Under the pieces are notes generated by a model, which was not told the DNA's origin, did no database searches, and worked only from the letters and a program-made list of their open reading frames with translations. DNA of 64,000 nucleotides from Ascidiella aspersa (lineage: Eukaryota). How positions within the stretch are numbered: position 1 is the stretch's first letter; each line of letters opens with the position of its first letter. The translations under genes were made by a program, and so were the position numbers. Location: NCBI GenBank assembly GCA_963924565.1, contig OZ004615.1:5456001-5520000 (forward strand), in the 5' to 3' direction. Positions 12,501-55,500 of this stretch are shown piece after piece.

Positions 12501-15500
12501 TTTACTCTGGTTTTTAAACTTTGAGTTTTATTGTTGATATACGCGTCAGCGGAACAGTGACCGACAAGCAGAAACCTGCTGCCAATGGTTTTAAATTCCA
12601 TAAAGATACGCCCTTCTATATTCTTCAATAAATTTACGTTTTAACATGAATACTTTGGCTTTAGATTGCAAATTATGGCCTAAATTCCTATACTAATTGT
12701 CATTGGATTGGCACCGATCCAGCCCTATACTGTCAGACGAGTATCAGGTATCAACTCCGATCTAACATTATGAAACATGCGTGATTACCAACACAGCATC
12801 GGATGAGTACCTATTCTCTACCAGTTCGACATGCTTCGCGTATTGCAGGGGTTCTTAAACTGGGGTCCACGTGCCCCTTGTAGGTTCGGGAACTAGTTTT
12901 CGGGGGTCAATGAAGGCCTAATTGAAATATTAGTCGATTTCAAAAAAAAAATAGTTCAATTAAAATTGAAACGTTTTACCACTGAACGTATTTAGACTCT
13001 ATTTGACTTTTACATTTTTTGACCAAAATCAGCATATTTCTAGAGTCTATTTGTATTGTGACGTCAATTTATGACTTCATTTTTGAAATTTTAAAATTTT
13101 TAGGGGTCCGCGGTAAAAAAAGTTTTAAGAATCTCTGGCGGCTTGGATCCGATATTATCGCATATATCCAACACTGACTCACGTTTCTAATGCTTGCCAT
13201 TTCAGAAGCAAGAGAAACCTTACCTCTGCCACAAGTTCAAGCACCCAGCTCACCACATTAAGTTCTGCCCGTATGAAGATGTGTTGGGAGTGGGAAAGAC
13301 AGACGGCTTCGCAAGTCTCCTGGTTCCAGGTAAAACAAGTTATATACGAGCCTGTTTACGATTTGATGCTGTACGAAGATGTGAAAGCTGTAAAAAGGAA
13401 CACACAATAGGACCTATTAACAAACAATATCCGAAGCGGAATTGTATATAATACTATAGTATGGCGTCAATGGCATAAAAAATTAAATACGCTTTAATTA
13501 TCTACGAAGGGAAAAGAACTAAATTCGCCTGAACAACACTTAAACCTGTCAAACCAAGTCCTAAACCCATCGGCATAACGTCTAAATGGCTTAAATAATG
13601 TGTAAAACAGTGTGGAGAACGTATCGCCGTTCGGGCATTTTAGGTACCTCGTAGTTTAAACGGCGCCGTTTGGGCGCCGCTGTTTTGGCACCCGACCTTT
13701 TGCCCTTTTTGTGGGGTTTAGGAATGGGGTTATAAATTGGGTTAGGTTTGGTGGAGTTAGTGATAAAGTTAGGGCGTGGAGTTTAGGGTTGCGTAAAATG
13801 ATGTTTAAATCTTATTTTGGCTGTTCCCACGATGAATTGACTTTTTAAAATCGGGATTAACAGACAGGGGATGAATATTTTTTCACTAGTGCTTTTTCTA
13901 CGCTTAAAAACAACTTACAGTTAAATAGTTATTATTCCAGATTGGCGTCGTGATGTGCAGTTTGTTAACCTCTGGATTTTGATAAAAAACTTGCACTTTT
14001 CCTCCTCATCCTCCAAACATCTTCCTCTTCTTCTTCAGGAGCTGGAGAGCCCAACTTCGACGCGTTTGAGGCCAATCCGTTCCGGAGCAAACAGCAGAGG
14101 AAGGAGTGGGAGGTTAAGGCCCTCCTGGAGAAGATCCAACCCGACATGATCTCCATCGATCCCTTCCAGATCTCCAAGCTCGACAAGGTCACCGCCGAAC
14201 GACTGGCCAAGGATAAGGAGGAGAGACTGGTGGGTTCTTGTTGTTGTTATTGTTGTTGTTTTGTTGCTAAAAATTGAATTGGAATAAACTGAAATTGAAT
14301 TTAACTACAAACTAAAAAAAAATTAAATTGCACGTTGAATTCAACTTAGGAGAGAATGGCGAGTTCTTGTTTTTGTTCTTGTTCTTGTTCTTGTTTTTAT
14401 TGTTGTTTTTTGGCTGAAAATTGAATTAAATTAAACTGAAAAAAATCTGAAATTGCAAGTTGAATTTAACTTAGGAGCGACTGTGAGTTGTTGTTTGTTG
14501 GTGAAAATTTAGATTGAAATAAGCAGAAACTGAATTGAATACATGTTGCTACCAGGCGAAATAATAACATTATTAAAAAACAGCAGCTCCTCTGCTAATT
14601 GTAATTGTTAGCAGTTAATAGCAGTAAGAAAAACGAATGAAGCGAACCTAATTCTTTCTGAACATTTTACACTGCTGCAGTTAAGGGCTGCCATGCTATA
14701 GTTTAATTACATGTCATCTTGTTCAACATAGCATAAAATCAATGCTAAGACAATTGTTCACGTTATTGAGCATCACCAGTTCGGTCTGTGCACGAATTGC
14801 CCATTGTGAAACTATCGATTTAGATTTCCTTTTTTATTATTGTTTAGTGAGGTCGTATATTGAACCAAATGGTGCCCAAGAAGCACACGTTTATAGTTTA
14901 CTGGATTTCCAGTAAACCCTATTGTTTAATACCTTTTCTACACTCATCAAGGATTTATTTTATATAGTTCAAAATAGTTTTTTTCTGCTCTAAACAAATA
15001 ATAATGGCTTCGTAATGTATGTTTAATTACTCGTACGTGCGACTTGCCAATTTCGCTTTAATTTTCTTAAAATACTTTTTTATCACAGTAATGATGATAC
15101 CAAGCAAATTCAGTAAATACTTGTTAAAGGGTCTTCATTTGCGCTACGAAGGAAAATATCATATTAAAGCGAGTCGTTTTCGATTTTAAAGCTATACCGT
15201 CGTTTCCTAAACCACAATTTTCCTAAAACCCCAGTAAACGAACTGGAGCTTTCGCCTTAAGTCACACACTCACATATTTCCTCACCCACGAAAACGTTTC
15301 CTCTCGACAGGGCTACAAGCCCGAGGGTTGCAAGTTCGAACCCCGCTACAAGATGAAGGGCCGCAGCAAGACCGGCCAGGTGCAGAAGCGCAAGCAGAAG
15401 ATGAAGGACCTCGCTCTTCGTGATCGCATCAAGGAAGACCTGGAGAAGAAGAGGTCTCTCCTCCTCTCCGAGAGCAAACCGGCTCCTCCCTCCTCCGAGG

Positions 15501-16650: not shown

Positions 16651-25937
<9,287 letters not shown>

Positions 25938-34500: not shown

Positions 34501-37500
34501 GGGTAAAATATTGTTTATATCTTATTCTGGCCGTTTAGTCGTATTCTGACGGATTGGATCTTATTCCGATTTTGATCTTATCTCGACTATAGGTTTTGGT
34601 TCCATTTTGGCTTTATTTCGAACAGAGTTTTGTTTCAACGATGATGTTCTTTCTAATTTTTTCTGAAGTCGTGCGTATTACCTGGTCATATTGTTTGGTT
34701 TTAGTCTTGTTTCATTTTAGCGTTACCAGTTCAACGTTTTTCACTCGTATTCCAAACAAAGTCAACTGACTTTATGGCCATTTTGTTTTTTCGGTATTCT
34801 TTTTTCTACTCTTTTTCGCTTTTTTGGAGATATGCATGAATATCTATATTATAATTATCTTAATTGTCTACAATAAATTAGGCCTGTCCCAAATGTAGAG
34901 GTTAGAGAATTCCCAAAGTGCTGGGCATGGTTGCCCGACCGTAATACTAATTGCTGTCTGATGATCATAACCTATTGTTTTCCAAGTAATTAAGTTCCAC
35001 TGTTTTTATTTCAGTCCACACCGGGCACTCTGTCTTGGACAGACGTCAACACCAACAATGGTTACAGCTACTGGGCGTCGACACCACCAAGCACGTAAGT
35101 GAAAAACAGTAACAGTAGTTTTTTGCGACGAACCCATAGGATTAACGATTCCACTTCACCTAAGAATCAGGTTTGAAAATAGCATAAGCAAACGTCACGG
35201 CATGGCTTAAATTTTTGCTTTGAAGCTCACTACAGGCTAGATTTTTCTAACCTGACTTTGTTGGGATGAGATTTTTCATTGTTAGACTTATATTTCTGTT
35301 AGTCTCCCGGTGTGCTAAGATGCAGTTGTAGTTGTTCATCGACCTTCAATGGTCCAAACTACAGTAGTTGTGCATATAAGTGTTTAAGTTAGCTGAGTAA
35401 TATTTTACAATATAAAAAATCCAGTGTTGTGGTCATAATGACTTAAATCGAAGACTTGACTTAACTATGCCTAACTTAAATGACTTGACTTGCATTTGAA
35501 TCATTGAGTCAGGTGACTTGGGTTGAAACACTTTTACAGAAGTAAAAGTGTTTTCATTAACATTTTATTATAAGATTGAGCTATTGATCTAAGTCTCGCA
35601 CGTAAAACAATTAGATTGCTACACCTTGTTTTGTTGTTATTTTTTCGTTGATTTTTTTCTAATAATTTGACCAGGCCAATTTTATTTAATTTATTGTTTT
35701 TTTACATCAGTAGTTGACTTGAAGATGACCTGCTCTTGTTATGACTTGACTGGCACTTGACTTGGACTTAAGTTATTTTACAAATGACTTGTTTGGGTCT
35801 TCAGTCATTTCAAATTACTTGTTTACATCAATATTAAAATCCGAATAAATTCCCACTTTCTTCACAAACCTATAATGCCCTGCGTTATTTCTTTAGGTTG
35901 CCTTACTATGGAAGCACTTGCATCGAAATGAACCAGGGACTCTCCTACCGCTGGAATTGGGTGAAATGCTCGGAGGAAAGGCAATTCGTATGCGAACGAG
36001 GGCCGAGGGGTAATTGAAAACTGAATATGTAACACACCTTGGACTGTATTGACCTGGTTTTGATGGCCTTGTTACATGCATAATATATCGCTGAATCTTA
36101 ATTTTACTGTCCTACAGTAGGCCTATAGCTGTTTAATAAATCAATTAGCTCAAACAGCACAATATTAAACTTACATTTAAATACAAGTTTAAATGTAAAA
36201 AAACGTAACGAAACAGCAATGACCTGTTGATATATATAGCATATTCTTTCAGTTTAAGTCGATTTTTCTTCTGCCTTGTCGTTTTTAAAGCCTAAAATAA
36301 ACCGGGCTAAAGTTTTTTTCTCTTCCTTGCAGGCAAATGCCCCCCGACTTGGCTGTACAATAGCGTCTCGCAAAAGTGCTACGAGTTCGTGGTGAACCCG
36401 AACCGAGTTCAAACCTGGTCGACTGCCAAGCAGCTTTGCCAACAGATGGGCGGAGGACTCCTGAAAGTTCAGAGGTTTGTTTAAATTATTCAAGGTACAA
36501 AATACACGAATTTATATAGCTCCATTTTTTAATTTAGGAAAAATATCGCATATTTCAACAGTCATGAAACAGTGATATTTTTTAGAAGATTTGACCTGTG
36601 TGGTTTCTAGTTTTTTATAACCGAGCTGAGACACGGGGTAAGTAATATCGATTTACCTGATTTATCCAGCTCACCCAACGAGTTAACAGACGTTTAAAAT
36701 GTTTTTCAAACTTGTTGCACAGTTAATATGCTGTTTCAATCTCTTTTAGTGTAATGTTACAGTTAAGCACTTATCTAAAATACGAGCAAGGGTGCCGTGA
36801 ACTATTTATCACTCCTGTAGTGTGCCACAAGTCAAAAAAGGTTGGGAACCACTGTTCTAAACTGTCTACAATCAAACTTAAGCATTATGACGTCAGTAAT
36901 AAACATTGTAATAATTCGAACGTCTAACAATCCAACCATATATATGTAGTGTAGCAGCTTATTGCCTTTTTCCTTTTATAGCTACTATACAACAAAGGTA
37001 GAATAAATAAATAAGACCTAAATCTGCCAGAATAACTAATGTGCTGTTAAAACTGCCTACTTTCAGTTCCCAAGAAGAGCTTTTTGTCGGCACAATTCTC
37101 GAAAGCTACACCGAAAGCGGTCACCCCCTAGTTTGGATCGGGGCCTCTGATGTGGGACACGATGACACAATAACTTGGTGGGACCAAACCTCGGTGGAAA
37201 ACTACTACTGGGGCCCCGGAATGCCTCAGTTAGTGCCTGGTACGTCAAATGAATTCAGCTATTTAGTTTGATTTTAAAGAAGTATGGTTTATAATGTATT
37301 TTAAGTTCCTTGTTTTCTTTGCGAAGCCTAGTGCCTGGTACGTCAAATGAATTCAGCTATTTAGTTTGATTTTAAAGAAGTATGGTTTATAATGTATTTT
37401 AAGTTCCTTGTTTTCTTTGCGAAGCCTACGGTAGATTTCGTTGACATTAATGGGCGCTGATCTAGCATCCTACATTTGTGTTGAAACCATTGTAATAAAG

Positions 37501-40500
37501 AAACGCACCATATTTTAGTTTAGTGTGCAGGTTAGGGTTTGGGTAAGGGTGGGTCAAGTATGTTATATTTATTATTTAATATTATTGCTTAACTTACCCA
37601 AACCTAAACGTCAAACCTCACCCTAACCCATATAATGTTCGTTGTGCTAGTATTGTAGACCAGCGCCCAGAATAGTTCAGCTGTTCAGATCGATTTTAGA
37701 AAGTGTGATTTATATTGTTTTAAGTTCCTTGCTTGGCGTTATCTTTGCACAGCACACAATATTTCGTTCACATTAATGTAGTCAAATAAAGAGAACAATA
37801 TTGATTTTAAAATAAAACTGTTTTTATTTTGTCAAGCTAACACATTTTTCTGTTTTTCTTGTATTTAAATGTTGGTTGTGTCGTTTAAACGTTACTTAAC
37901 TACCACACGAAAAGCGGGACGTAGCTTACTCAATGCAAAAATATCCTTAGACGCGCGGTAAAACGCGGTGTGGACTTTGACTTTGGTTATTGGTAGCCTT
38001 ATAGTTTGCAAGTAAACTTATAGTGGATGTTTAATGCTGTTTCTACTTTGAATTTTAAAATTGATGGTCCCGTTCCAGTAAAGGTTTGCGTAAGTATCTG
38101 CATACTTTTTGCCATTCTCTATTACACTGCTCTGCTCGTTTAGGTCGCGAAGACTGCATAGCTCTATACACGGGCAAGTCAGGCGACAACTGGGAAACGG
38201 CGACATGCTTTGAGGATAGAGCCTACATTTGTGAACTACCGGAAGGACAGGACCTTCCCAATGTACCAGTTATAACAGGTAAGGGCGATGGTAAAATGTT
38301 AATTTCAACAGGCAGTGGATTTACTAAATATAACATACTGTTTTTTAAATTTATTTGTCGTCAAACCTAGCTTCTCGCGACCCCCTTAAACTAGTCCAGG
38401 TACCACCAAGGGGTCCACGGACACAAGTTTACTAACCCCTGACAAAAAAGGAAGCGATATGTGACCACTTTCTCTATCTTTGGTGACCACTGACCACCCC
38501 ATCTTTTTTTTAGTGACCACTCTCTTTTTTGTTTTTAGTGGACGGCAAGTGCGAGGAGGGGTGGCGCCACCTCGGTGATAAGTGTTATTTCTTTGGCTCG
38601 GCGGAAAGAACCAACGCCGAAGCGAAGACCTTCTGCGCCAACAACCAGGCCATGTTGACCAGCATTCTCAACGCAAACGAACTCTCCTTTATCGAAGGTA
38701 AGTGCTGAAACTTATCTTAAAATTCACTTTTGTTGTAAAATTAGATTTTATTTTTCGTTTGAGCTAGTGTACAGTACAGTAGTATTAGCAATATCTAGTA
38801 CTGTCGAATATTTTAAGTGGTGGTATCGGTACTCGTTTTATATCTTCAAAGGTAGGCAACAACTTTAAATTGACGTTTAAAAACTACGTGTTAGTCAATT
38901 ATCATAAACAACGTTACTAAAGTACTTTTTTATTATATTTTATTTTAATTAAATTTTTTTACTATATTTTATTTAAATTATTTTTGATGACATCGTTTGA
39001 TATCAGACCGGATGGTCGTACTGCGAAGTATCAAACAATCCAATATGTTATGCTGAAAAAATAATACTTAATATAACGGAATGAAAACAAAATGCATAAA
39101 AATGCGAAAACAATTGAAATAAAAATAATAAAGGTAAAATATAAGCTTGAAACAGCAGTAGTTGCCTTCTGTGGTGTTTTTTTAAGTTATTTCTTCCGAA
39201 GTATACGACTTAACGAAATGACTTTTTCGGGTGTGGTTAATTTACTGATAACTGAAAGATAGAACAAATTCAATTGTATATAATGTTAAACGAGACTCTT
39301 GCTCACGGACTTGCACGTTGCCGAGCAGGTAACATTCAGATGGAATCGTGGATTGGTCTGACAGGCAGTGACCCCAACTACCAATGGTCGGATGGCGAAG
39401 CGTACAACTCTAATGTCGAAAACTGGGTTATCGGCGAGCCAACTGGGGACGGTACTTGCTACACTGTCAATCATTCCGGAGAATGGGCCGACAGATCTTG
39501 CGACCTTTCTAAGGTTGGGTTCATCTGCAAGAAAGACGACAGTACGTTGTTTACTTTTGTTGTTTTATTTGTTGCCTATATTTTCGTTTTTATATTGGTT
39601 ATGGATTTTGTTTGATTCAATTTTAAATTTTGGTTTTGTTGTAAGCAGGGGCGGATCTAGTGTGTGTGTGTGTGTGTGGGGGGGGCACTTCTAAACTGTT
39701 TTAACTAAGTAAATGCAAGCATTTTTTGTCCTACGCCCAAATCTAATTATGTTTTTAGGACGTCTTAGTTTATTTTGATGCAATCGTTTTTGGCTAAAGG
39801 CGTCCTACTTTCCATCGAACCCTTTAAAATAAAAGTTAACGATATAAAGGCGTTTTATGCGAATCAATAACATTGTTGCAGCTTTTCTATTGGAAGTAAC
39901 ACCTGTCCAATCCAAAAAAAACAGTGTGGTGTTCATAAGACTGCTTTTTATGAAGTCCCGTTTAGATGCAAGCTTGTGGCGTAACATTTTGACGTACCTT
40001 TGTATCGTCACTTAATGACGTAAATTTGTGACGTCATCTCTAAAACACATGTCATGGGCCCCAAACACACTTCCTATAGATGCGCGCCTGGTTGCACGGA
40101 ACTTTTGAATGTACCATAATGTTGTTAGCTGCTTTAAAATCCCGTTATCAAAATGCCATTTAACGCTTAACTTCTATTTCTGGTTAACGTTTAACTTTTT
40201 ATTGGTTTGTCAAGAATAAAAAATATTTCATTGCTTTTGACTCTAACAATGTCTTGTTTTACTTCAAGCTAATTTAATTCTCAACTTAATGTTTTTAGTT
40301 CCTGTGGACCACGTCACTATAGCACCACCAACATACGGTAAGTACAACATCTTAATATTCTAACGCTTGCCTATAACATAGAATCTGTATAAAAATGAAG
40401 TTGAATTATCTACATTCTACTCCTATAAGGTTTTAAGCACGGTCCTACCGCATATGACACTATAGCCTTCAAGGTCACTAATCAATATGTTCGTTTCTTT

Positions 40501-43500
40501 TTATTCTAATCAGTTCCTGATTTGGAGAAATGTGGAGGTGATGGCTGGATTTCCGACCCAACCTCGAACAGATGCTACAAGGTAACCGTTGAAAAATTTA
40601 AGAAGATAAAATTGTGCAAGAAATGCATGAAATAGCTACAAAGGCAATTTCGTTTTTTTTTTAAGTTTTCAAAAATAAAATAAATTAGAAAGGCTAAATT
40701 TTAAGTATGCAGCTTTCCATAAAACAAACGTCTATTGTTTTATATCTAAATATAGAAATAAAATTTACTTAAGGACTATATTTAAAAACATAAGTTTGGT
40801 AAAAAAGTTAAAATGTTTAGAATAATGTTAAAAACAAAATACCAATCGCGAAAATCCTAAATTTAAAAGCGCAAATTCAAAAAAGGTAATATATTGTCGT
40901 ATATGTCGTATAAATGAAACAAATCTTAAAACCGTCTTCCGTTTAATGAAACTGTAATTTCAAAAATACATAAAAGGTAATAAAAATCGCTGGCCCTTCG
41001 TCTAAAAAAATAAACCTAAAAGGAATAGGAGTTTTTAAAGACAAAACAGTGAACAACCAGTTATGCTGTACAGATCAACCTGGACCGCCGCAGTTGGCAG
41101 GACGCGAGGTTTGCTTGTCAACAGGGAGGCGGTGAGCTGGCCTCAATGAACTCACCAGAGGAGAACGCCCACGTGGCAGGTAAGATCTTCTGCTTAGCTC
41201 GAAGTATTGAAGGTAACTGAGTCACCATTTCAGGGTTGATGTTGAATTAAAATTTGCACTGCTCCAATAAATGACTTAAGTCCCAGTCAAGTCATCTCCA
41301 AGTTATACCACTAAGATATAACCTTAAACTGTTAAAACGATCTCGCGATCGTCAGGCCGTTCAGTGATACGATCTTTGATCAAAAAAGATTTGTGGCCCC
41401 ATTTGTAGATCAACATACTCGACTTTAATGAACGATACACACATATGTATTCAACAAATGTGATCTGACCCTTCTGAAGCTGGTTTTTGACCAACGAATA
41501 CGACTTGCAAGAAAAATGAAGATAGCAGCAACTATAGCCTGCGGTGAGGTTGGAACTCGCGACCTCTTAGACTTAGAGCGACGGTTTCCGATTATTCCGG
41601 AACCGTCGCTCTAACAAATGATTTACAGTACACAGACCCAGAGGGAGCGTGTGGGTGTTTCTAGATATGCTCCCCTCTGAGCCTGTGTAGCTTAGTTGGT
41701 AGAGCGCGTCCGGAGGTCGTGTGTTCGAACCTCACCGCAGGTTATAGTTGCTTCTCTAGCTTGTATCATTGATCGGAAATTCAATTAGTCTGCCATGGCT
41801 TTTGATGTAATCGAATATATTTGCCATTTTTTAGTTTCAGAAGGGTGCTGTACTTTTGTTTCAATCCTGTAGTTAATTAAAAGAACATAGGAGATTAAGT
41901 CAATGTTACACTGTTTTCCTCTAGCTTTCGCTAGCATAGTACAATGCTTTTAAGAGCAGCAGTTTATCCTGCAAAATTTACTTTCAACAGCGCTGGTCCA
42001 GAATATTCCGACCGAGTCTTATTTCTGGTTGGGCGGCAACGACTTGAACAACTACAACATTGAACTGGTCGATCAGGGCTGGTCGTGGTCGGATGAGAGT
42101 GCTTTTAACTACATTAACTGGGCACCAAGTAAGCAAGTGTTTTAGTCATTTGAGCCGATGGCGTCGCGTGCTTTTATATTTATTTACTTGACTACATTTT
42201 TCTAATCGGGTTTGTCTTTAATTTCGTAAGTTTTCCTTATTAACCCTTGTTATAAGTTGAGTTTTTGGTCTTTGCTAAACATAATATTTCTTTTTTGTTT
42301 TGTTATTTAAAAAGTTCAATGTTTACATTTTTATACCAACGTCTAGTTGTTTGTTAAAACTGACTTAGTTTAAAATGAAGTCTATTTTGCAATTCTATGT
42401 GTGCATCGAACCCCAGAATATTCGGTTATTTTAAGGAATAAATATTAACAGCAAATATCGAGCTACCGAAAATAATTTTGCCAAAGTGCGTTTAAGTCAA
42501 AGGGGGTCCACATAAGCGTTCACCAAATTCAGTGCAAGGACGTACTGTTTCCTTTTTCAAAAATCTTAAGTAAATTAAAGCTAGACAATTAAATTTTCGG
42601 CTTACCATTTAGCGTCAGCATTTTTAGCTTTATATATATTTTTGTAATCTAAACACTTTTTTTTAAAAGCATATTGTGTCTCCATCGAACAGACTACAGG
42701 CTAATTGCCAACACGTTTAACCTAACCATATAAAGAGTCCAAAAACGGCCTTTAGAAAACCCCAAACTATTGCTTCAATTGGGCAGCGGCCTATAAGCAA
42801 AGCAACAACCAAAAACGTGATTTTTCCTTTCTTTCGACACAGGCGAGCCAAACAACGTAAACGTTGAGGACTGCATGGAGATGTACGCCTCCCATGGCCA
42901 GTGGAACGACGCCGACTGTTTTGTTTTCCACGGATCGGTTTGCGAGAAGGTGGGAGACATGACAAGCATCGTTGGTCCGGACATTACCGACGACAGCTGC
43001 GATAGTAACGCCGCCTGCTGCTTCAAGTAAGGAAACAACTTACCTTTTAACACAGCGGTTCTTAACCTTTTTTTATATTTTACCCTTTTAACAAAAATAA
43101 ATATAAAATTTACCCTCAATAAATAAAGTGGTCCTAATTTATTAAAAAATCGGAAGTAAAAAAATACATCAGTTAAATTCAGCGCGACAGCTGCCCTTGT
43201 TATTGTGGCAACGAGTTGTTTAATGTCTGGTAAAGTAGTAGATTATGCACAACGAATATCAGATTTAACATGTTAAGTCGGTTTTAGATTCGATAGTAAG
43301 CAATGCTAAGTAAAAAGCCGTTTCACAAAGGATAGTTGAAGATAACGTATCCAGAATATTCAGAGCTTGAATATATATCCTTGGATTTACCCCCTTTTGA
43401 CCATATTTTAATAATACTCGGTTTTATGAGAAATTGTTTTATAAATTTTTTCGAAAGAAAATTGTTTCCTGTGCTTGCTGAAAAGTCGGGGGCACTTTTT

Positions 43501-46500
43501 GTTCTAGGAATAATTTTGAAGAAGTTTACCTTTTAAAGTTCCATGGGTTAAAAAAAATAATTCTCTGTAGTTTCGTATTTCCGATCATTTTCATTACTTT
43601 ATCAATGTTTCAAATTTCATTACACATAAATGACTATACACACTGCAAAAAACTCATCCTTATCTTTACATTCCCCCTATTTAAAAGCCCTGCCAATATT
43701 TACCGTCGGCCGATTGTTACGTCACAGGCACATTGGAGCCGAGTTCGGGGGGACTCTGCCCGACAGCGCGTTGAGCGCTTCCAGCGAAGCGGATGAGTGG
43801 TTCACCGCCGATCGCGGGAGGCTTAACACGGTTGCTGACGTCGTCATCCTTCCAGGTGACGTCAACAAACTGTTCAATTTTTTTAATTTTGAGAATATTA
43901 TTGAGATTTGGAAATAAATCGATAAAGAAACAAGCAGTTAATTCTTACCACATATACAACGAAATGTTGGTGTCTTGTTTTGAACTGTTGCACTGAATAT
44001 GTGAATAATAGAAATGACCTTGGTCCTTGCAAGTTTAATGTCGACCTTAATACATAATCAGTAACAGCAGAATAATTCAGCAAAGGCTAAGGTCGACATT
44101 TATCTTGCAATGGTGAAGTCGATTTTAAATATCACATATTCAGTGTAACGTTGATTATCCGAATCGACCTCCCTTGAATTTGCTAGATTGTTTGCTGTTA
44201 TTTGAACTGTAAACGATTTGTGTTTTTATTTAAAGTTTGCCTTACTTAAATAGAAGTAATGTTTGTAAATATAGAAAAAATGTGGAAGAACAATTTTGCA
44301 ATTGATAGAACAAATGTATATCGATTTTGGTTCGATACATTCTTCTAATTTCAAAATTTTAAACATTAATCTTCGGTGCATTGTGGCCATATTTGTTTAG
44401 AACTACAAAAAAAGTTAAATGACGAGCTTTCGCACGATAAAGGTCAGGTTAATTTATTAAGGTTCATGTTATATTAGATTTGGAAGTAAACTGTTTAGTT
44501 TGTTTCTTTTTTCACCAAGTAAACTGCTTAATTTGTTTCTCAGGGGACCAGGGGATATCGGTGGGTAACGGACACGGGGGCTGGCGACCCAATGGGGGTG
44601 ACACAAACCCCTGGTTGCAAGTCGATCTCCCATACCACACGGAACTCAAGGGGATCATAACACAGGTGCTTTAATTATATGGTGATTAAAATCTTTTTGT
44701 ACACGTTTAGATTTTGCATAAAATCAAAAACGGTTTACATGGGTTATAATTGGTTAGGGAATCTACGTTGTGTTATGCAAAATGATATAGATACAGAAAG
44801 TTCATCTATAGAAACAAAAAGTTCAATCAAGAGAATCAGGCGCCAAAGCTTTGCCGTTAATACTTGCGCTGTCTGACTTTTAGTTTTTCACCCGATCCGT
44901 CAGAAATTAGTGCAGTTGTAAGCAAAAAGGTCTACGACAATTAGGGCATCCAAAGGATCGAAAAGTCTGACTTTTAGACCTTGAGGTCGAACTGTGCTAC
45001 TTTGATCGGGTGCATTTTCTGTTTAAACTTAACAAAGTGTTTCTCAATCTTTTTTCGCGGCCACCCAAATACAGGGTGCGCCAGAAAAACCTACCACATT
45101 TCAAATTGTCACTGTACCAAAGCTGTAGCAGTCTAACAGGAGGTTGAATTGAAATATTGCAGCAAATAAAATACTTACAATTTGTGTTTCAGGTTTTAGA
45201 TTTAACAACTTAATAATGTTTTGTGCAATTTTGTATGTGGTAGGGTTTCTGGCGCACCCTGTTTTGGGGTGGCCGCGAAAAAAGGTTGAGAAACACTTTG
45301 TTAAGTTATAACAGAAAATGCTGCCGATCGAATTAGTGCAGTTCGACCTTAAGGTCTAAAAGTCAGACTTTTCGACTCTTTGGATGCCCTAATTGTCGTA
45401 GACCTTTTTGCTTACAACTGCACTAATTTCTGACGGATCGGGTGAAAAACGTATAGTTTACTGTATTGCGTAACATAGAACTGTATTGGCTGTGGCATCA
45501 AAACTTTTACCAAAAGTTATAAAATAAGTTGTTTTAATGCTTTGGAAGAGAATACAATTATTGGTATTTCTGGCTAACAATGTGCTTTCTATTTTGTTTG
45601 AACCTGAAAGTCTAACTCAGGGGTTCTTAACTTTTTTTACCGCGGACCCCTAAAATTTTCTTTCATCTCGCGTGGACCACTGAAGGCCAAAAAAAGGACG
45701 TCACAGTACAAATATACTTCACAAACTTGCTGATTTTGGTCCAAAAATTGTAAAAGTGAAATGGAGTCTAAATACATTTAGTGCAAAACCTTTTTATTTT
45801 TAAACAAATTGTTTTCTTTAATAAATTGATTAATGCTTAAATATACACTAATGTTTCAATTAGACCTTCATGGACCCCCTAAAACTAGTTCACGGACCCC
45901 CAAGGGGTCCATGGACCCCAGTTTAAGAACCACTGGTCTAACTAAACCTGAAACTCGTCTTTGTACTGTTATCCGATGAGCAAACCTTACTCTGTTTTCG
46001 CCTTAATTGTTTTGCTTTTTTTGTTTCTTAATTAGAAATTGTTGTCACATCTTTTCAGGGTCGTAACGGAATTGTTATTTACTTGGATCGTTCGTGGGTG
46101 ACGAGTTACAAGATTTCCTACAGCCAAGACAAGGTCGCTGACAAGTGGGAATTCATCACGGACGCAAACGGCGACCAAGTCGTAAGTAAAGCTACTCTGC
46201 CTTGGATAAAATACGCGGCAGCTGTAATATAGTGATTGGCAACCTTTTATGGCTTACGGTACCCCTCAAAAGTTAGTGCTAAATTTGCGGCACCCCTGCT
46301 AGAATTTTCGTTGAGTATTTTACTAACATGTCACTATAAATGGAACTGGAACAACACAATCAACCTAAAACGATAGGAAAATGTCATTTGATATAATGGT
46401 TTCTAATAGTGACACAAATAGGTATGAAAAAGCTTACCAGTTGAGCAAAAATCAGATTTCTAAAATTTCTTAAATACCTATAGACACCCTTGGTCATTAG

Positions 46501-49500
46501 AAATTGCACACCAGGGCGCCGCGTCACCCCGGTTTAGAACCACTGCTGTAATATATACCGGGTAGTGAATTTTATCACTGGTGTGGCCGAGGTCGTGAGT
46601 TTAAACCTCAATGCATCAGGCTGTATTTTCCAAGCCTTGTCATGCTTGCAAATTTGTTTTGGCGTTTGCCTTTTCGAACGTATCTGTTATGCTGTGATCG
46701 TTAGCCAGCACTACTTTAGCGGGGTTGGATCAGAGTATATATACATATGAATTTCATGGCTAATGTAACGGTTTTTAATGCCAAAATTGTAATACTCAGA
46801 AGCTTCTTCATGTGCAAGAATATTTTTTTTTCATTTTACAGAGATATTTCATTCTAATTTAGAAATACTTTATTAAGTGAAATGAAAAATTAAGTTGTTT
46901 ATCAGCAAATATTAATGTTTAACAGGTTTCGCGTATATCCTAATAACTTCACGCCAAACGTCAGAATGTTCCAACGGCAATTTATTTATTTCCTGTCGTC
47001 AATAATGTCAGCAATCTAATTTTCCCGTCATCGTTTTTGTGACAGATCTTCAACGGCAACGCCGACCAGAACACACAAGTGACCAACCTTTTCCCACGTC
47101 CAATCATCGCACGCCACGTCAGGTGCCACCCAGTCACGTGGTTTGACTCGCCAACTATGCGACTGGAATACGTCGGCTGCCAGGCTTGTACGTCACAGTG
47201 AAATCGAGTCTCTCAGTTAATTTAACATGAATGGGGTCGTTTAAATAATGGGTTTTGACAAATGTTCAGTTAATATTTTGAGAGTTTTCAAGTGTTCTTT
47301 GTAATGAATACCGTTTTTTTACCCTACTCTAATATTCTTTATATCGCATTCAAAAAAAAATACCAGATCTTTGTTATCTATCACTCTTACATAAAGTGGG
47401 TTTGTCCAGATTAAATATCACGTGTTTTCAAAGTTTTTTTTTGTTCCCTAATGCAATTTTAAAGTGCCGTTATCCACCAAAGATATTTCAGCATAATATG
47501 CTGTAAGGTGAACAGTGAACACATATATAAAAGATGCTTTCAGTTAAACAAAAAGATAAATATGTGTACTTTCTGTTAAAAAAATGACATTTTTCCTGTT
47601 GAAATACATTGCGTTACGAACGAGAAAAGACCAAATACGATAAGTGCAAAGAACAGCTATTTTTGTTTAACAATTCGGTTAACGATGTACAAAAGGTTTT
47701 CAATTCGTTATGGAAACTAAATGGTTCTTCTTGCCCATACAGCGTGCTTGAGAAACCTCGGTATGAACTCTGGCAACATTCCGGACACCAGTATTAGCGC
47801 CGTGTCGTCCAAGAATGGCAGGGAACCCAAACAAGCAAGACCTCCGGTCAACACCGGTGAGTAAACTGATGGACCTTGTTTAAACCACAAATAGCGTATT
47901 GTATGTAGCGACCTAACCTCTGACTACCGTGCACAATGGAAGCCTTCGACACAATAACCAAGTCAGTCGATTAAAATGCAAACAAGACAGGCTTGAAAAA
48001 CAACACAGCGGTGAGGTTCGAACTTACGATCTCCGGTTATGATAGGACAGTTGCTCAGCTACATGAGCTCAGATGAGAGCACGTCGAGAGACATTACTTG
48101 CATCATATTAGTATAAACAGCTTCATGTTGAAGAGGATCTACAGTGCAATGTTAAGTCAATGAAAAATACACATGAGTATACAGACACAAACACTGTTAT
48201 CTTTGACCAAAAACGACTTCAGAGAGGACTAGATCAAAGTTCTTGTACACGTATGTCTTCTTAAAGTGTTCACCGGAAGCCTTTGACTAATAAACCAAGT
48301 CAGTCAATTGAGATGCAAGCACGACAGTCTAGAATAACAAGCCTGTGGTGAGGTACGAACTCACGACCTCCGGTCATACCGTGCCTGTTGCTCTACCAAC
48401 TGAGCTACTCGTGCTCATAGGGGGGCAAGTCGAGAAAAAACATAGCACTGTTGCCTGAAGCGCCTGTTAGTACAAACATCAGTTGATTGAAAAACGGCCG
48501 ATGTCAGATGTCCCTCAATTGTCGTATACCCTCAACATACATTTCAAGGCGTTATTTTGCCTATTTTAGGCCGTATTCCGATAAATTTCGGATTTTTTCA
48601 GACAGGTTTAAGCCTCATTCAGATTTTCGATTTTATTCTGTCGTGGAAGTTATATGGAATTATCTATTGTTCTGATTTATATATATTGTTGCTTTGTAGG
48701 TCTTATTATGTGTTCTTATTAGAAGTCTCTGGCTGTGGTTTATGTACGTAAATTTTAACTCGTTTTCTCGTTTTCAGACGAGTGCCTTCCAACCGCATCG
48801 AACGCCGGGGAGGCTTACCGTGGATGGATTTCGAGGACCAAGAGTGGACTCGTTTGCCAGGAATGGTCGTCCCAAACTCCGCACAGACACAACTAGTCAG
48901 TATATGTCGCCAAAATTCGATTTGCTTGTTTGTAAGACAGTCTATGTTTGTGCCTGCAGACATGGGCAGCTGGACTCTCTCTTTTTTCTGCACTTTTTTG
49001 ATGTTTGCACAAAAATTAATCACAAAAAACAATAATGAAAACACAAAAATAAAAGATGCACAAAACCAATTTAACCTTGAATTTTACTAAAACATACCAA
49101 CGCAAGATATTTTAATACTTAATCACACGTTAAGATGGCCTTACTGTAAATCGAAAACAAATGTTTTTCTTGTTCGCAGCAACACAACGAAAAGAAGCAT
49201 TTTTGTCACTGTGCCTTCAATAACTTGTTTTGTGTTAGTTTGTTTTGTTCCAAACCAAGTTGTAACTCACCTTGTGTGCGACTGCTTAATCTTCGTTTGA
49301 AATATACTCATTTACGGCATCAGAGCAGAAAGTTTGTCAATCAACTAGTTATAATCCAGCAAAGATGCCGTCATAAGTTTGGTTTTAAACAAATCCATAT
49401 TTTTTCACACAAACAGCGTGCTTCATATGGTTAAACTATCCAAATACAATAGAATAAAACCATAATAGTTAATAATCATGCACAAAACTCAACCGTTTTT

Positions 49501-52500: not shown

Positions 52501-55500
52501 TTTATCCGGACCAGTGGAGTGGCGAGCCCGCCATGCAGTTCGAGCTGAACGGTTGCTATGCCGACGACCGCATCACGTGCTCAGGTTTGGCGCGTTGTTT
52601 TGTGGGTTATGACGTCACTGGTTGGTCTACTTTGGAAAAGGGCTTTCCTCTGAATATAGACTCTATGGTTACCCATCGAATGTTTCATTTGACTTTCCGG
52701 TGAAGTATTAGCCTACTTTCTTCGCTGAGCGGCGATAAAAATTATGTCGTTTGAAAAACCCATTAACTGTTTATTCCTGGTCAATGTATCAAGTAGCAAT
52801 ATGATGAAAGTTTTATTTTTCGCAATGTAGCTCTATCTCAGAAAGTGCATATATTTTACCTGTATTTCCGAGAGTTCGTCGACTTATTTAAATAAGCAGA
52901 ACGGTCCACACAGGAAAACGAATTGGGAATCCCTATAGTTCAAGCTGAGTAACAGTGCCTCTCAACCATTTGTGACTCTATAATCTTTAATAACAAACAA
53001 GATTTTCTTTGGAACACTATATACGGATCTGTTCATAAGTTTATTGATGAAAATAACGGCCCAAATAGACGTTAAAAGCGTGATAGGCATATCACTGATG
53101 ATGGCATTAGAAATTGCCGAAACGTTTGAAAATAAAGCATGTCGCTTTTAACGCGTATTTGGGCCGTTATTTTCATCATTAAAGACTTTCTTTGATTGAA
53201 TACTAATAATACGTAATAGTAATTTGCGTTAAGGATCCTTTCGCTTCTTCATTAATTACAGAACACAAGTTTGCCTACCTTCATTCGCCCAACTGTTCAT
53301 TAAAGTCTATATTGTTACACGAATGAACGTGTTAAGCTAAATAGGTGAGCTGGTAAACCGATTTATTCATTTGTCGTCGTAACAATGACCCCTTTGTCCA
53401 GATACGGGGGATCTTTGGCAAGATGAAGAGGGGGCCTACACGGTCGAGTGTCCCTCGGGCTGCGTGGAAGACCCAGAAGCCCAACCAGTTTACGGAACCG
53501 AAACCTACACCAGGGTAAGTCGAGGAATAGAAAGTTTTACCACCCAGTAAAGAAGTGTAGAGTATTTACTATTTTTCATAGTTAGTGTAGAGCAGGGGTT
53601 CTTAAACTGGGGTCCATGGACCCCTTAGGGGTCCGTGAACTAGTTTTAGGGGGTCCATGAAGGCCTAAGAACTAGTGCATACTTAAGAAGCAATTATTTT
53701 TTAAAAGAAAACACTTTAATTAAAAATTAAACGGTTTTGCACTGAATGTGTAGTTAGACTCCATTTAACTTTCACATTTTTCGGACCGAAATAAACAGAG
53801 TTCTGAAGTCTATTTGTATTGTGACGTCATATTATGACATCATTTTGGAGCATTTCTCGCCTACCGGGGTCCGTGCAAAGCAAAAAAAAATTTTAGGGGT
53901 CCGCGGTAAAAAAAGTTTAAGAACCCCTGGTGTAGAGCTACCATATTTTCAGCAACCAAAAAGAGGACATTTTTCTGCCGGCAAGTAAAACGGAAGTAGA
54001 ATTGTTATGGGTTTGATGATGTTTTACAGTTCCTTGGTAGTTGCAGGCAAAAGTTACAAAAACAAAGCAAAGAAAAATGACAAAAACAGACACAAAAACA
54101 TCAAATCAAATTTATTTTTCAGATTAAGGCCTTGAATACTTTGCGGTTCCCTTAACTTTTGCCAATAAGGAATGATTATTTTTAACGAGATCGTGAAACT
54201 GTTTACACGAAATATCATTGAAATTGTATACAACCGCCAAGACAGTAATTTTTAAGAAATTAATATTAAGTCTCGCCTAAAAGTCTTGTTGAAAGTATAA
54301 GCAACTAACTCGAAATGCAAAAAAGAGGACATTTGGGCATTTTTGAGCGTCCTCGGAGGACCATTTACTTTTCTTGGGAAAAGAGGACAAATCCGCTTAA
54401 AAGAGGACATATGGCAGGATTAAGTTAGTGGTATTTCGGTTTGGAAGTGTTTGGTTTGTGACAAGAAACTTTGAATAGAGTAGGACGGCTAGTATTTTTC
54501 TTATGAAACTGAATAGTTTGTTTGCTGTTGAAACTTTTTCCCAATTGTTGACCATTGGTTGATTTTGTTAGGTGTGCTATGATTCAGTAATTCCAGTAAC
54601 GGATGAGGTTTCACTTATTGCTCAATGTTGTAATGATTTATTGAGTGTGAATTTTTATATTTACTTGTAAAGTATATTATGGTCTAAAGACTTGACTTGA
54701 TTAGATTGAAAATAACTTAGAATTCACTTTTTTCACTTGTCCAACTTAAGAATTTAAGTCAAACTTGACTAGGTATTTGTAGGTAACCAATTGGTATAGA
54801 GCAGGGCTACTCAACTATTATTAGGAAAGGTACAATTACAAAATTTAAAATTTGCTTAGGTCTGTTATAACTCTCATGAAATAATTTACAGTCATACAAA
54901 CTGTAATACGGTATAAGTCCTTCGCTTCAACTGAGAATTCTGTCATGCCGTTACTATGCAAAGGGGTTTTCAACGAACAGCAGCAATTGTTTGCCGAGAA
55001 AACAATCATCAAATCGTTTTGCCCAGTAAATACTGAGACAGATAAGGTCCGGATTCGACATTGAAAAGGTCCGCATTCAGGCCGCGGTTCCGCCAGTTGA
55101 GTAGCCCTGTTCATATGGAGTATAGACTCATTTTATTTAAAAATAATGTCTTAATTGGTTAAGCTTATTGGGTCTTTTCGTGGTTTAGCACTCGTCTGTG
55201 TGTCGTGCTGCTGTCCACGCTGGTCGGGTCCTCAACTCCCACGGTGGACCGGTCACCGTCGAGCCAAAAGAGGGACTGGTGTCTTACGGGGGGAGCTACG
55301 CCCACGGAATCACTTCCCAGGAGTAAGTGATTGGACTGCGTTCGAAGTCCGACATTTTTTTTTTAACAAAACTGTCAGCAAAGATAAAATATAGAGTTAT
55401 CTCAACCAGGCAACAAATCAATAGATAGAAAACGCTCTTTTGGTGTAAGCGAAGTGTAAACTGACGTTTCGGCAGCAGATACCAGCTGACTTCATCAGGG

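Follow-up and report, generated by a model that had tools for sequence, protein, structure and literature searches.

The 64,000-nucleotide stretch of Ascidiella aspersa DNA analysed here (the window; assembly GCA_963924565.1, contig OZ004615.1, positions 5,456,001 to 5,520,000) carries at 52999-53194 an insertion of about 190 bases, which raises the question of how a retroelement copy comes to consist of two arms lying head to head, and why the arms stop where they do. The insertion consists, in order, of a 13-bp repeat, a 32-nt tail, a 41-nt arm, a 7-nt filler, a 96-nt arm of opposite orientation and the 13-bp repeat again, and positions 53008-53183 constitute a head-to-head stub of a Penelope-like retroelement (PLE) inside a 13-bp target-site duplication (TSD), with one mismatch between its left (AAGATTTTCTTTG) and right (AAGACTTTCTTTG) copies. 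Read on the minus strand, the tail prolongs the N-terminal codons of the element's ORF, and at this place the ORF of a sister family reads KIINRSVFSVP. The direct arm begins within the cluster of stop sites, at -3 to -7, that characterises family A, to which the insertion belongs, and the filler differs at a single position from an inverted copy of the inner end of the other arm (TGATATG), from which it may have been copied. The features are summarised in Table 1.

Table 1. Features of the insertion near 53 kb and of the related copy near 4 kb; arm coordinates are counted with the C of CTGATGA as 0.
Feature	Window position	Strand	Remarks
Left TSD	52999..53011	+	last 4 nt overlap the tail end
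PLE "tail", ~32 nt	53008..53039	-	on the inverted arm only, not on the direct arm
Inverted (tailed) arm	53040..53080	-	ends at +48
Junction filler TGATAGG	53081..53087		
Direct (tailless) arm	53088..53183	+	starts at -7, with G before it
Minimal type I hammerhead motif	53092..53129	+	descriptor of PMC4209133; cut predicted after 53126
Right TSD	53182..53194	+	first 2 nt overlap the arm end
Second window copy	4925..5145	+	TSD of 14 bp; tail clipped; inverted arm ends at +19, direct arm starts at -4, with 9 nt of filler between

An earlier note on this DNA had recognised two family A copies, at 4 kb and 53 kb, with the same start and an identical hammerhead, and this was borne out: CTATATACGGATCTGTTCATAAG is present in both copies and the 38 nt at 5042-5079 are the same as those at 53092-53129, without differences. 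The 5' piece common to the two copies is the reverse complement of the PLE tail. The true element start lies at about 53008 (TTTGGAACA), earlier than first read and among bases most of which the 4-kb copy lacks; the observation itself held, its ends being corrected. Outside the hammerhead, the direct arms share 96% identity over 93 nt. As had been claimed, the left arm is shorter at 53 kb, where the inverted arm without its tail spans 41 nt (53040-53080) compared with 70 nt (4962-5031) in the 4-kb copy, and the flanking repeats differ, that of the 4-kb copy being an exact 14-nt TSD (AATTCTAGGTTACA, at 4925-4938 and 5132-5145). The note had named a segmental duplication as the alternative; comparison of the 2-kb flanks of the two loci yielded no BLAST match at an E value of 1e-3, and since the flanks are unrelated by this measure the two copies do not represent a segmental duplication.

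The hammerhead of these copies is made up of a 3-bp helix I (TCA/TGA), the core CTGATGA (53095-53101), an extra T, a 4-bp helix II, GAAA and the palindromic AAACGTTT. The core pattern matched five times in the window, at four sites, against 0.23 matches expected from shuffling. No hammerhead family was found at these copies with Rfam at E values up to 1, and at the 4-kb copy the Rfam search gave only miRNA-like hairpin matches below the gathering score. The predicted monomer fold is not more stable than that of shuffled sequences (z -0.82), and self-cleavage is a prediction. Of 152 family A arms sampled across the genome, 98 read through the predicted ribozyme cut, and ends immediately 3' of it (+32 to +39; 14 of 109, p 0.09) form no significant pile-up, so that ribozyme-cut templates were rejected as the main source of the breakpoints; the template RNA would mostly carry an uncut hammerhead. 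At +32 to +45 (window 53127-53140) the family A frame from the hammerhead ATG is off by one base relative to sister family B, and the conserved N-terminus would begin at the next ATG, directly 3' of the predicted cut. Two other hammerhead-like motifs occur in the window: a diverged stub related to family A at 22049-22089 on the plus strand, with 85% identity over 41 nt and a GTC triplet, and, at 55466-55498 on the minus strand, a distinct motif whose helix II is longer and which likewise has a GTC triplet (CTGATGA...GAAACGTC), probably the stub of a different PLE family.

Walking upstream from the stubs led to a 5-kb insertion on contig C9, L080, which has the same ends as the stubs: it is flanked by a 10-bp TSD and comprises the tail, an inverted arm of 1.2 kb and a long direct arm. 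Its direct arm is broken by frameshifts and nested insertions which disrupt the RT and GIY-YIG frames; the RT fragment matches Pfam RVT_1 below the curated cut-off (E 6.4e-6), the C-terminal domain shows the GIY-YIG/CCHH pattern (VVYRLKCSCGKTYIG...H...H) and the C-terminal part shares 52% identity over 318 aa with an intact 848-aa RT/GIY-YIG frame of family B. No intact family A ORF was present among 150 scored matches; in the sister families, partial tandems carry open frames of 816-880 aa. The family B frame matches RVT_1 with an E value of 1.6e-9, and a Pfam GIY-YIG match was obtained only in family C, below the cut-off (E 7.5e-4). The family B ORF starts inside the hammerhead and, since its first codons match those in the stub arms and tail, the stubs are the pLTR ends of an EN+ PLE. 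The parent ORF combines RT with a C-terminal GIY-YIG domain having two Cys between GIY and YIG, the pLTRs are inverted in family A and in partial tandem in families B and C, there is a tail of 30-40 nt at one end and a minimal hammerhead motif lies in the pLTR. The Penelope/Poseidon clade is set apart from Neptune, Nematis, Naiad and Hydra by a DKG motif, a C-terminal EN, absence of the CX2-5CxxC linker finger and its place in the RT phylogeny (PMC8557442); the family B frame reads KPDKG and, by eye, is devoid of the Cys linker, and L080 reads KPDKD. A sequence search against the PDB yielded only weak group II-like RT matches (E 0.02). The element itself belongs to a known PLE type, and the stub layout has already been described. 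Two other classes were rejected. A MITE does not accord with asymmetric, tailed ends, TSDs of 9-18 bp, lengths of 82-409 bp and an RT-encoding parent. A non-LTR retrozyme is defined by head-to-tail tandem hammerhead monomers (bioRxiv 10.64898/2026.07.22.740005), whereas the sampled family A loci are single or head to head. Family C is very abundant, with 1063 exact genome matches (L270:3350-3410), and shows intact frames of 816-843 aa in tandem arrays, a U3-A8 hammerhead core and many opposite-strand pairs separated by 40-70 bp.

When the 308-Mb genome was searched at the DNA level, 913 candidates appeared at first look, 40 of which were scored, and an exact 24-nt tail pattern gave 274 matches, corresponding to at least 274 tails. 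The family A sample was picked by tail, and not by junction, from the first 100 tail matches listed, representing 99 loci on contigs C1-C3; seven loci sharing flanks with another locus were dropped, leaving 92 loci with 152 arms. At 60 of these loci a tailless second arm lies beside the tailed arm and at the other 32 none is adjacent; arms are single or head to head throughout, with extra partial pieces at L139 and L177 only. TSDs were scored for 61 two-armed copies (59 sampled, excluding L156, plus the two window copies) as adjacent repeats, allowing one mismatch and counting microhomology with the ends. A TSD of 9-18 bp was present in 58 of the 61, while 4.8% of mismatched flank pairs reached 9 bp; the target sites are AT-rich and the TSD length varies. 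The inserts range from 82 to 409 bp. Tabulating breakpoints and TSD lengths across copies, as the earlier note had proposed, thus revealed no fixed TSD length, and its reading of independent retrotransposition with an inversion, rather than a MITE with fixed TIRs, was upheld by the variable TSDs and lengths and by the RT/GIY-YIG parent. Its variable breakpoints require qualification, because the outer ends are nearly fixed, at two sites about 32 nt apart (modal positions +120, where the whole tail end is kept, in 30 of 61 copies, and +88, the end of the tailless arm, in 24 of 61), and the inner breakpoints, which do vary, pile up at one site.

This site lies at -3 to -7, where 29 of the 56 family A arms that reach -3 come to an end, compared with a background of 5.4% of stops per 5 nt between 0 and +79 (p 3e-22). 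Either arm is able to reach it, since both types contribute (17 of 32 tailed and 12 of 24 tailless arms). Longer copies show TATAAA at -35, such that the stops fall about 30 nt after the TATA box, and the sequence TCATATC around -6 is initiator-like. A G, which is a non-parental base, precedes the cluster ends in 14 of 24 cleanly called arms and other ends in 11 of 56 (Fisher p 0.0013). Genome-wide, the base before starts at -4 was G in 33 cases, A in 23 and C in nine (n=65), and before starts at -6 it was G in 38 and A in four (n=42); these patterns exclude the parental base and, for -6, also T at -7 and C at -8. In family A the sequence around the start forms a palindrome, and a snap-back filler could therefore supply the G; of the 38 cases with G before -6, 29 continue as TG.

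The stop sites of the sister families were predicted before counting. For family B, with TATA at -42/-40 and a predicted stop at -10, 79 arms were taken from 70 loci among the 125 matches. Of the 73 arms that reach -6, 28 end at -6 to -13, a cluster broader than predicted; the context here is non-palindromic, and the base before the clean ends at -6 to -12 is G in 17 of 24. For family C, with TATA at -35/-33, the A at -3 was predicted, and among 77 arms from 70 loci sampled out of the 1063 matches, 34 of the 54 reaching -3 end exactly there, so that the prediction was right to the base. The base before these ends is G in 23 cases, C in six and A in five, the parental base being T. Other family C ends lie at -5 (14, eight with G), at -4 (one) and beyond -5 (five); five of the six A rows at -5 represent one duplicated locus. 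For families B and C the p values overstate independence because some rows are the two arms of one insertion. Two apparent groups were discarded: a family B cluster at -78, an artefact of a 1-nt indel relative to the reference, and a family C group at -22, where the arms continue past an indel. In all three families, therefore, inner ends pile up about 30 nt past the TATA box (~29-31 nt in A, 27-36 nt in B and 28-32 nt in C) with an excess of non-parental G, which suggests that the stubs are likely to record the starts of capped RNAs. The family C locus L319 reads CAACAT-CG-ATGTTG, the pattern expected of two run-off arms, each with an extra base. One RNA run provided 52 and 91 reads, which cross-map and are too few to place a start, and showed no start pile.

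The best explanation, and one that we regard as probable, is that a sense, capped transcript is copied by twin priming close to its 5' end, the arms either stopping early or running off at the cap. The PLE enzyme would nick both strands of an AT-rich target, with the nicks staggered by about 9-18 nt giving rise to the TSD, and each nick would prime RT internally at one of the two sites bounding the tail, as occurs in vitro for the Anolis element. Run-off from the RNA 5' end would be expected because the priming sites lie about 90-120 nt from it, and the RT may copy the cap as an extra C. The two cDNA ends would then be joined by microhomology and short templated filler, and longer copies would result when copying of a longer transcript starts in its 3' pLTR. 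With no TATA box and hardly any of the ORF, the stub would normally be inert. The junction of the 53-kb copy, with its end at -7 and its near-palindromic filler, is compatible with copying of a cap but is not diagnostic of it.

The strongest alternative, which we nevertheless judge unlikely, retains run-off at the RNA 5' end; the G would then be added terminally by the RT independently of a cap, or the 5' end itself would be a product of processing rather than a Pol II start. The same G would be expected of an RT adding C to whatever template end it reaches, the cap being a putative feature deduced from the genomic copies, and the family B ends are spread over eight positions. However, the stop site tracks the TATA spacing in three families, and it differs from the ribozyme cut and, in family B, lies beyond helix I.

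Considerably less probable is an inverted arm formed when a single copy primes itself or folds back, possibly with an antisense template, as proposed for the Penelope elements of Adineta (PMC3846280). Short palindromes do occur at family A junctions (TG-ATAT-CA in 29 of 42), and minor alleles are common to both arms of a copy in 34 of 45 cases, compared with 24% after shuffling; this sharing indicates that one RNA or one source locus usually supplies both arms, or that they were homogenised later. Fold-back of a single cDNA must yield nested arms, and the tailless arm is indeed nested in the tailed arm in 22 of 60 two-armed copies; in two more the arms reach equally far. In the remaining 36, which include both window copies, the tailless arm reaches further in and neither arm is nested in the other, so that most copies require two priming events. 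Moreover, tailed and tailless arms accumulate at one and the same site of the sense strand, and a fold-back palindrome would give C as the added base in family C, where G is observed (p 0.002).

A slighter chance still attaches to the proposal that the stubs constitute a non-autonomous, MITE- or SINE-like family copied as whole units from stub masters. In its favour, L135 and L136, 367 kb apart on C2, share one junction and private variants within unrelated flanks and different TSDs, and one of them may have been re-copied whole or gene-converted; L117 and L158 have one junction sequence in common, and the outer ends are nearly fixed. Otherwise, however, the junctions are distinct, the lengths are continuous up to the 5-kb coding copy, the TSD length varies and the TATA box is missing from most stubs. 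In seven copies, the 4-kb one of the window among them, the join lies near +16 to +19 and -4 to -6, and these recurrent joins probably arose through common AT bases. L195 and L196 are one duplicated locus with two different junctions; with L042-L048 they belong to a tandem array of about 20 kb on C1, in which one insertion has been amplified with its flanks and shows more than one junction, and where junctions can be remodelled after insertion. The L135/L136 and L195/L196 patterns imply that a few junctions are secondary rather than primary, and, contrary to the earlier equation of variable breakpoints with independent events, a differing breakpoint need not reflect an event of its own. Finally, the view that the breakpoints are random 5' truncations or later deletions, and their pile-up an artefact of alignment or selection, merits hardly any credence: the indel-derived -78 cluster and the remodelling at L195/L196 lend it something, but the sequence past the cluster differs copy by copy, family A was sampled by tail and the family C site was predicted to the base. 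Our preferred reading thus remains twin priming with run-off at the 5' end of a capped transcript.

The earlier note had taken high identity as a sign of young age. The arms within one copy differ at 3.9% of sites (99 of 2532) and copies differ from one another by 5.9%, so that family A is recent but not brand new and the young age holds only in part; the mismatched TSD of the 53-kb copy and the lack of an intact ORF among the 150 matches also speak against it. A presence/absence polymorphism, also proposed there as a check, was seen, but it extends over a larger block and not over the insertion by itself. A second allele, in which 786 bp (52590-53375) are replaced by 260 other letters, is carried by contigs of X1 and X2, which may be the source of the assembly, and raw DNA reads of another sample, X11, show no depth over the unique flanks 52595-52984 and 53219-53374; X11 appears to lack the entire block, and a clean empty site was not seen. 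The segment 52422-52584, for which RNA reads and AG/GT ends were found, is likely to be a host exon, with no Pfam match, and the insertion probably sits in the intron following it with the hammerhead on the strand of the gene.

The window also contains host exons matching WD40 and C-type lectin (411-887 and 39256-39612, plus strand). Three degenerate tRNA-like matches of similar sequence (10253-10323, 41681-41743 and 48340-48414) are likely to be heads of a tRNA-derived SINE. A 580-bp MITE-like element with 212-nt inverted arms lies at 44876-45457, and a dispersed MITE-like family with CAGGGGTTCTTAAAC ends at 12830-13070, 20362-20680, 45620-45940 and 53577-53938. A 20-bp minisatellite in two blocks lies at 9760-10915, and an exact 98-bp tandem duplication at 37231-37426.

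Among known systems, the EN+ Penelope/Poseidon PLEs, including Penelope of D. virilis and Pen2/Pen2a of Adineta (PMC3846280 and PMC8557442), share a head-to-head inverted, 5'-truncated copy, a 30-40 nt tail at one end, a TSD of about 8-10 bp or more, a pLTR carrying the first ORF codons and a TATA box with an Inr-like TCACT. They differ in that here most insertions measure 80-400 bp and the inner ends, accompanied by an extra G, gather at the likely start. In the Adineta study the junction palindromes are read as self-priming on an antisense template (PMC3846280). The promoter of D. virilis Penelope is TATA-less (PMC2377424), and the TATA spacing will therefore not hold for all PLEs. The Poseidon protein of Anolis carolinensis studied by Frangieh et al. 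nicks and extends both DNA strands in vitro and starts RT internally at two sites bounding the tail, without a need for ribozyme cleavage (PMC11167929). An ORF beginning within the hammerhead is shared with family B, and a tail bounded by two RT starts, AT-rich targets and uncut RNA as the main template are further points of likeness. That work employed synthetic templates, and its main text is silent on inverted junctions, start site and cap. Neither run-off at a start site nor an extra G at PLE stubs was described in the papers listed by our literature search, with subscription papers and supplements outside its scope; Fig. S2 of PMC11167929, on genomic and RNA read ends, may bear on start-site run-off.

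The minimal hammerheads of metazoan PLEs described by Cervera and De la Pena (PMC4209133) resemble those found here in the extra base between 9 and 10.1, the G10.1-C11.1 pair, the palindromic helix III, the short helix I, the U3-A8 core variant (family C here) and the occurrence of opposite-strand motif pairs 100-700 bp apart; helix II has 4 bp here, which differs from their description. The same paper assigns single motifs to truncated PLEs without giving a mechanism. With L1 twin priming and L1/SVA insertions (PMC4859970) our copies share an inversion within a TSD, small breakpoint indels and an extra G at those ends that extend to the RNA 5' end, an untemplated G at full-length L1/SVA ends being read there as a copied cap. 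For L1, the second primer anneals upstream and the two parts do not overlap (PMC4859970), whereas here both primers start near the same site, so that the product is an inverted repeat, and a poly(A) tail is missing.

The origin of the PLE inverted repeats and the identity of the template strand are stated open questions (Discussion of PMC3846280, and PMC8557442). On balance, and with less assurance than for the mechanism itself, we favour the broader proposition that a "strong-stop"-like product is the commonest outcome for PLEs, with twin internal priming in the 5' pLTR of a capped, sense Pol II RNA generating a pair of run-off cDNAs with a head-to-head join. The stubs, of which animal genomes hold thousands and which are easily misfiled as MITEs or miRNA-like hairpins, would then map the promoter of each family to the base, settle the template strand and explain the palindromes without antisense self-priming. 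While the stub as such is ordinary mobile DNA, the junction statistics are evidence from living genomes (in vivo) that the template is sense and that both arms reach its 5' end; they also provide base-level predictions of start sites and would allow PLE promoters to be read from nothing more than an assembly.
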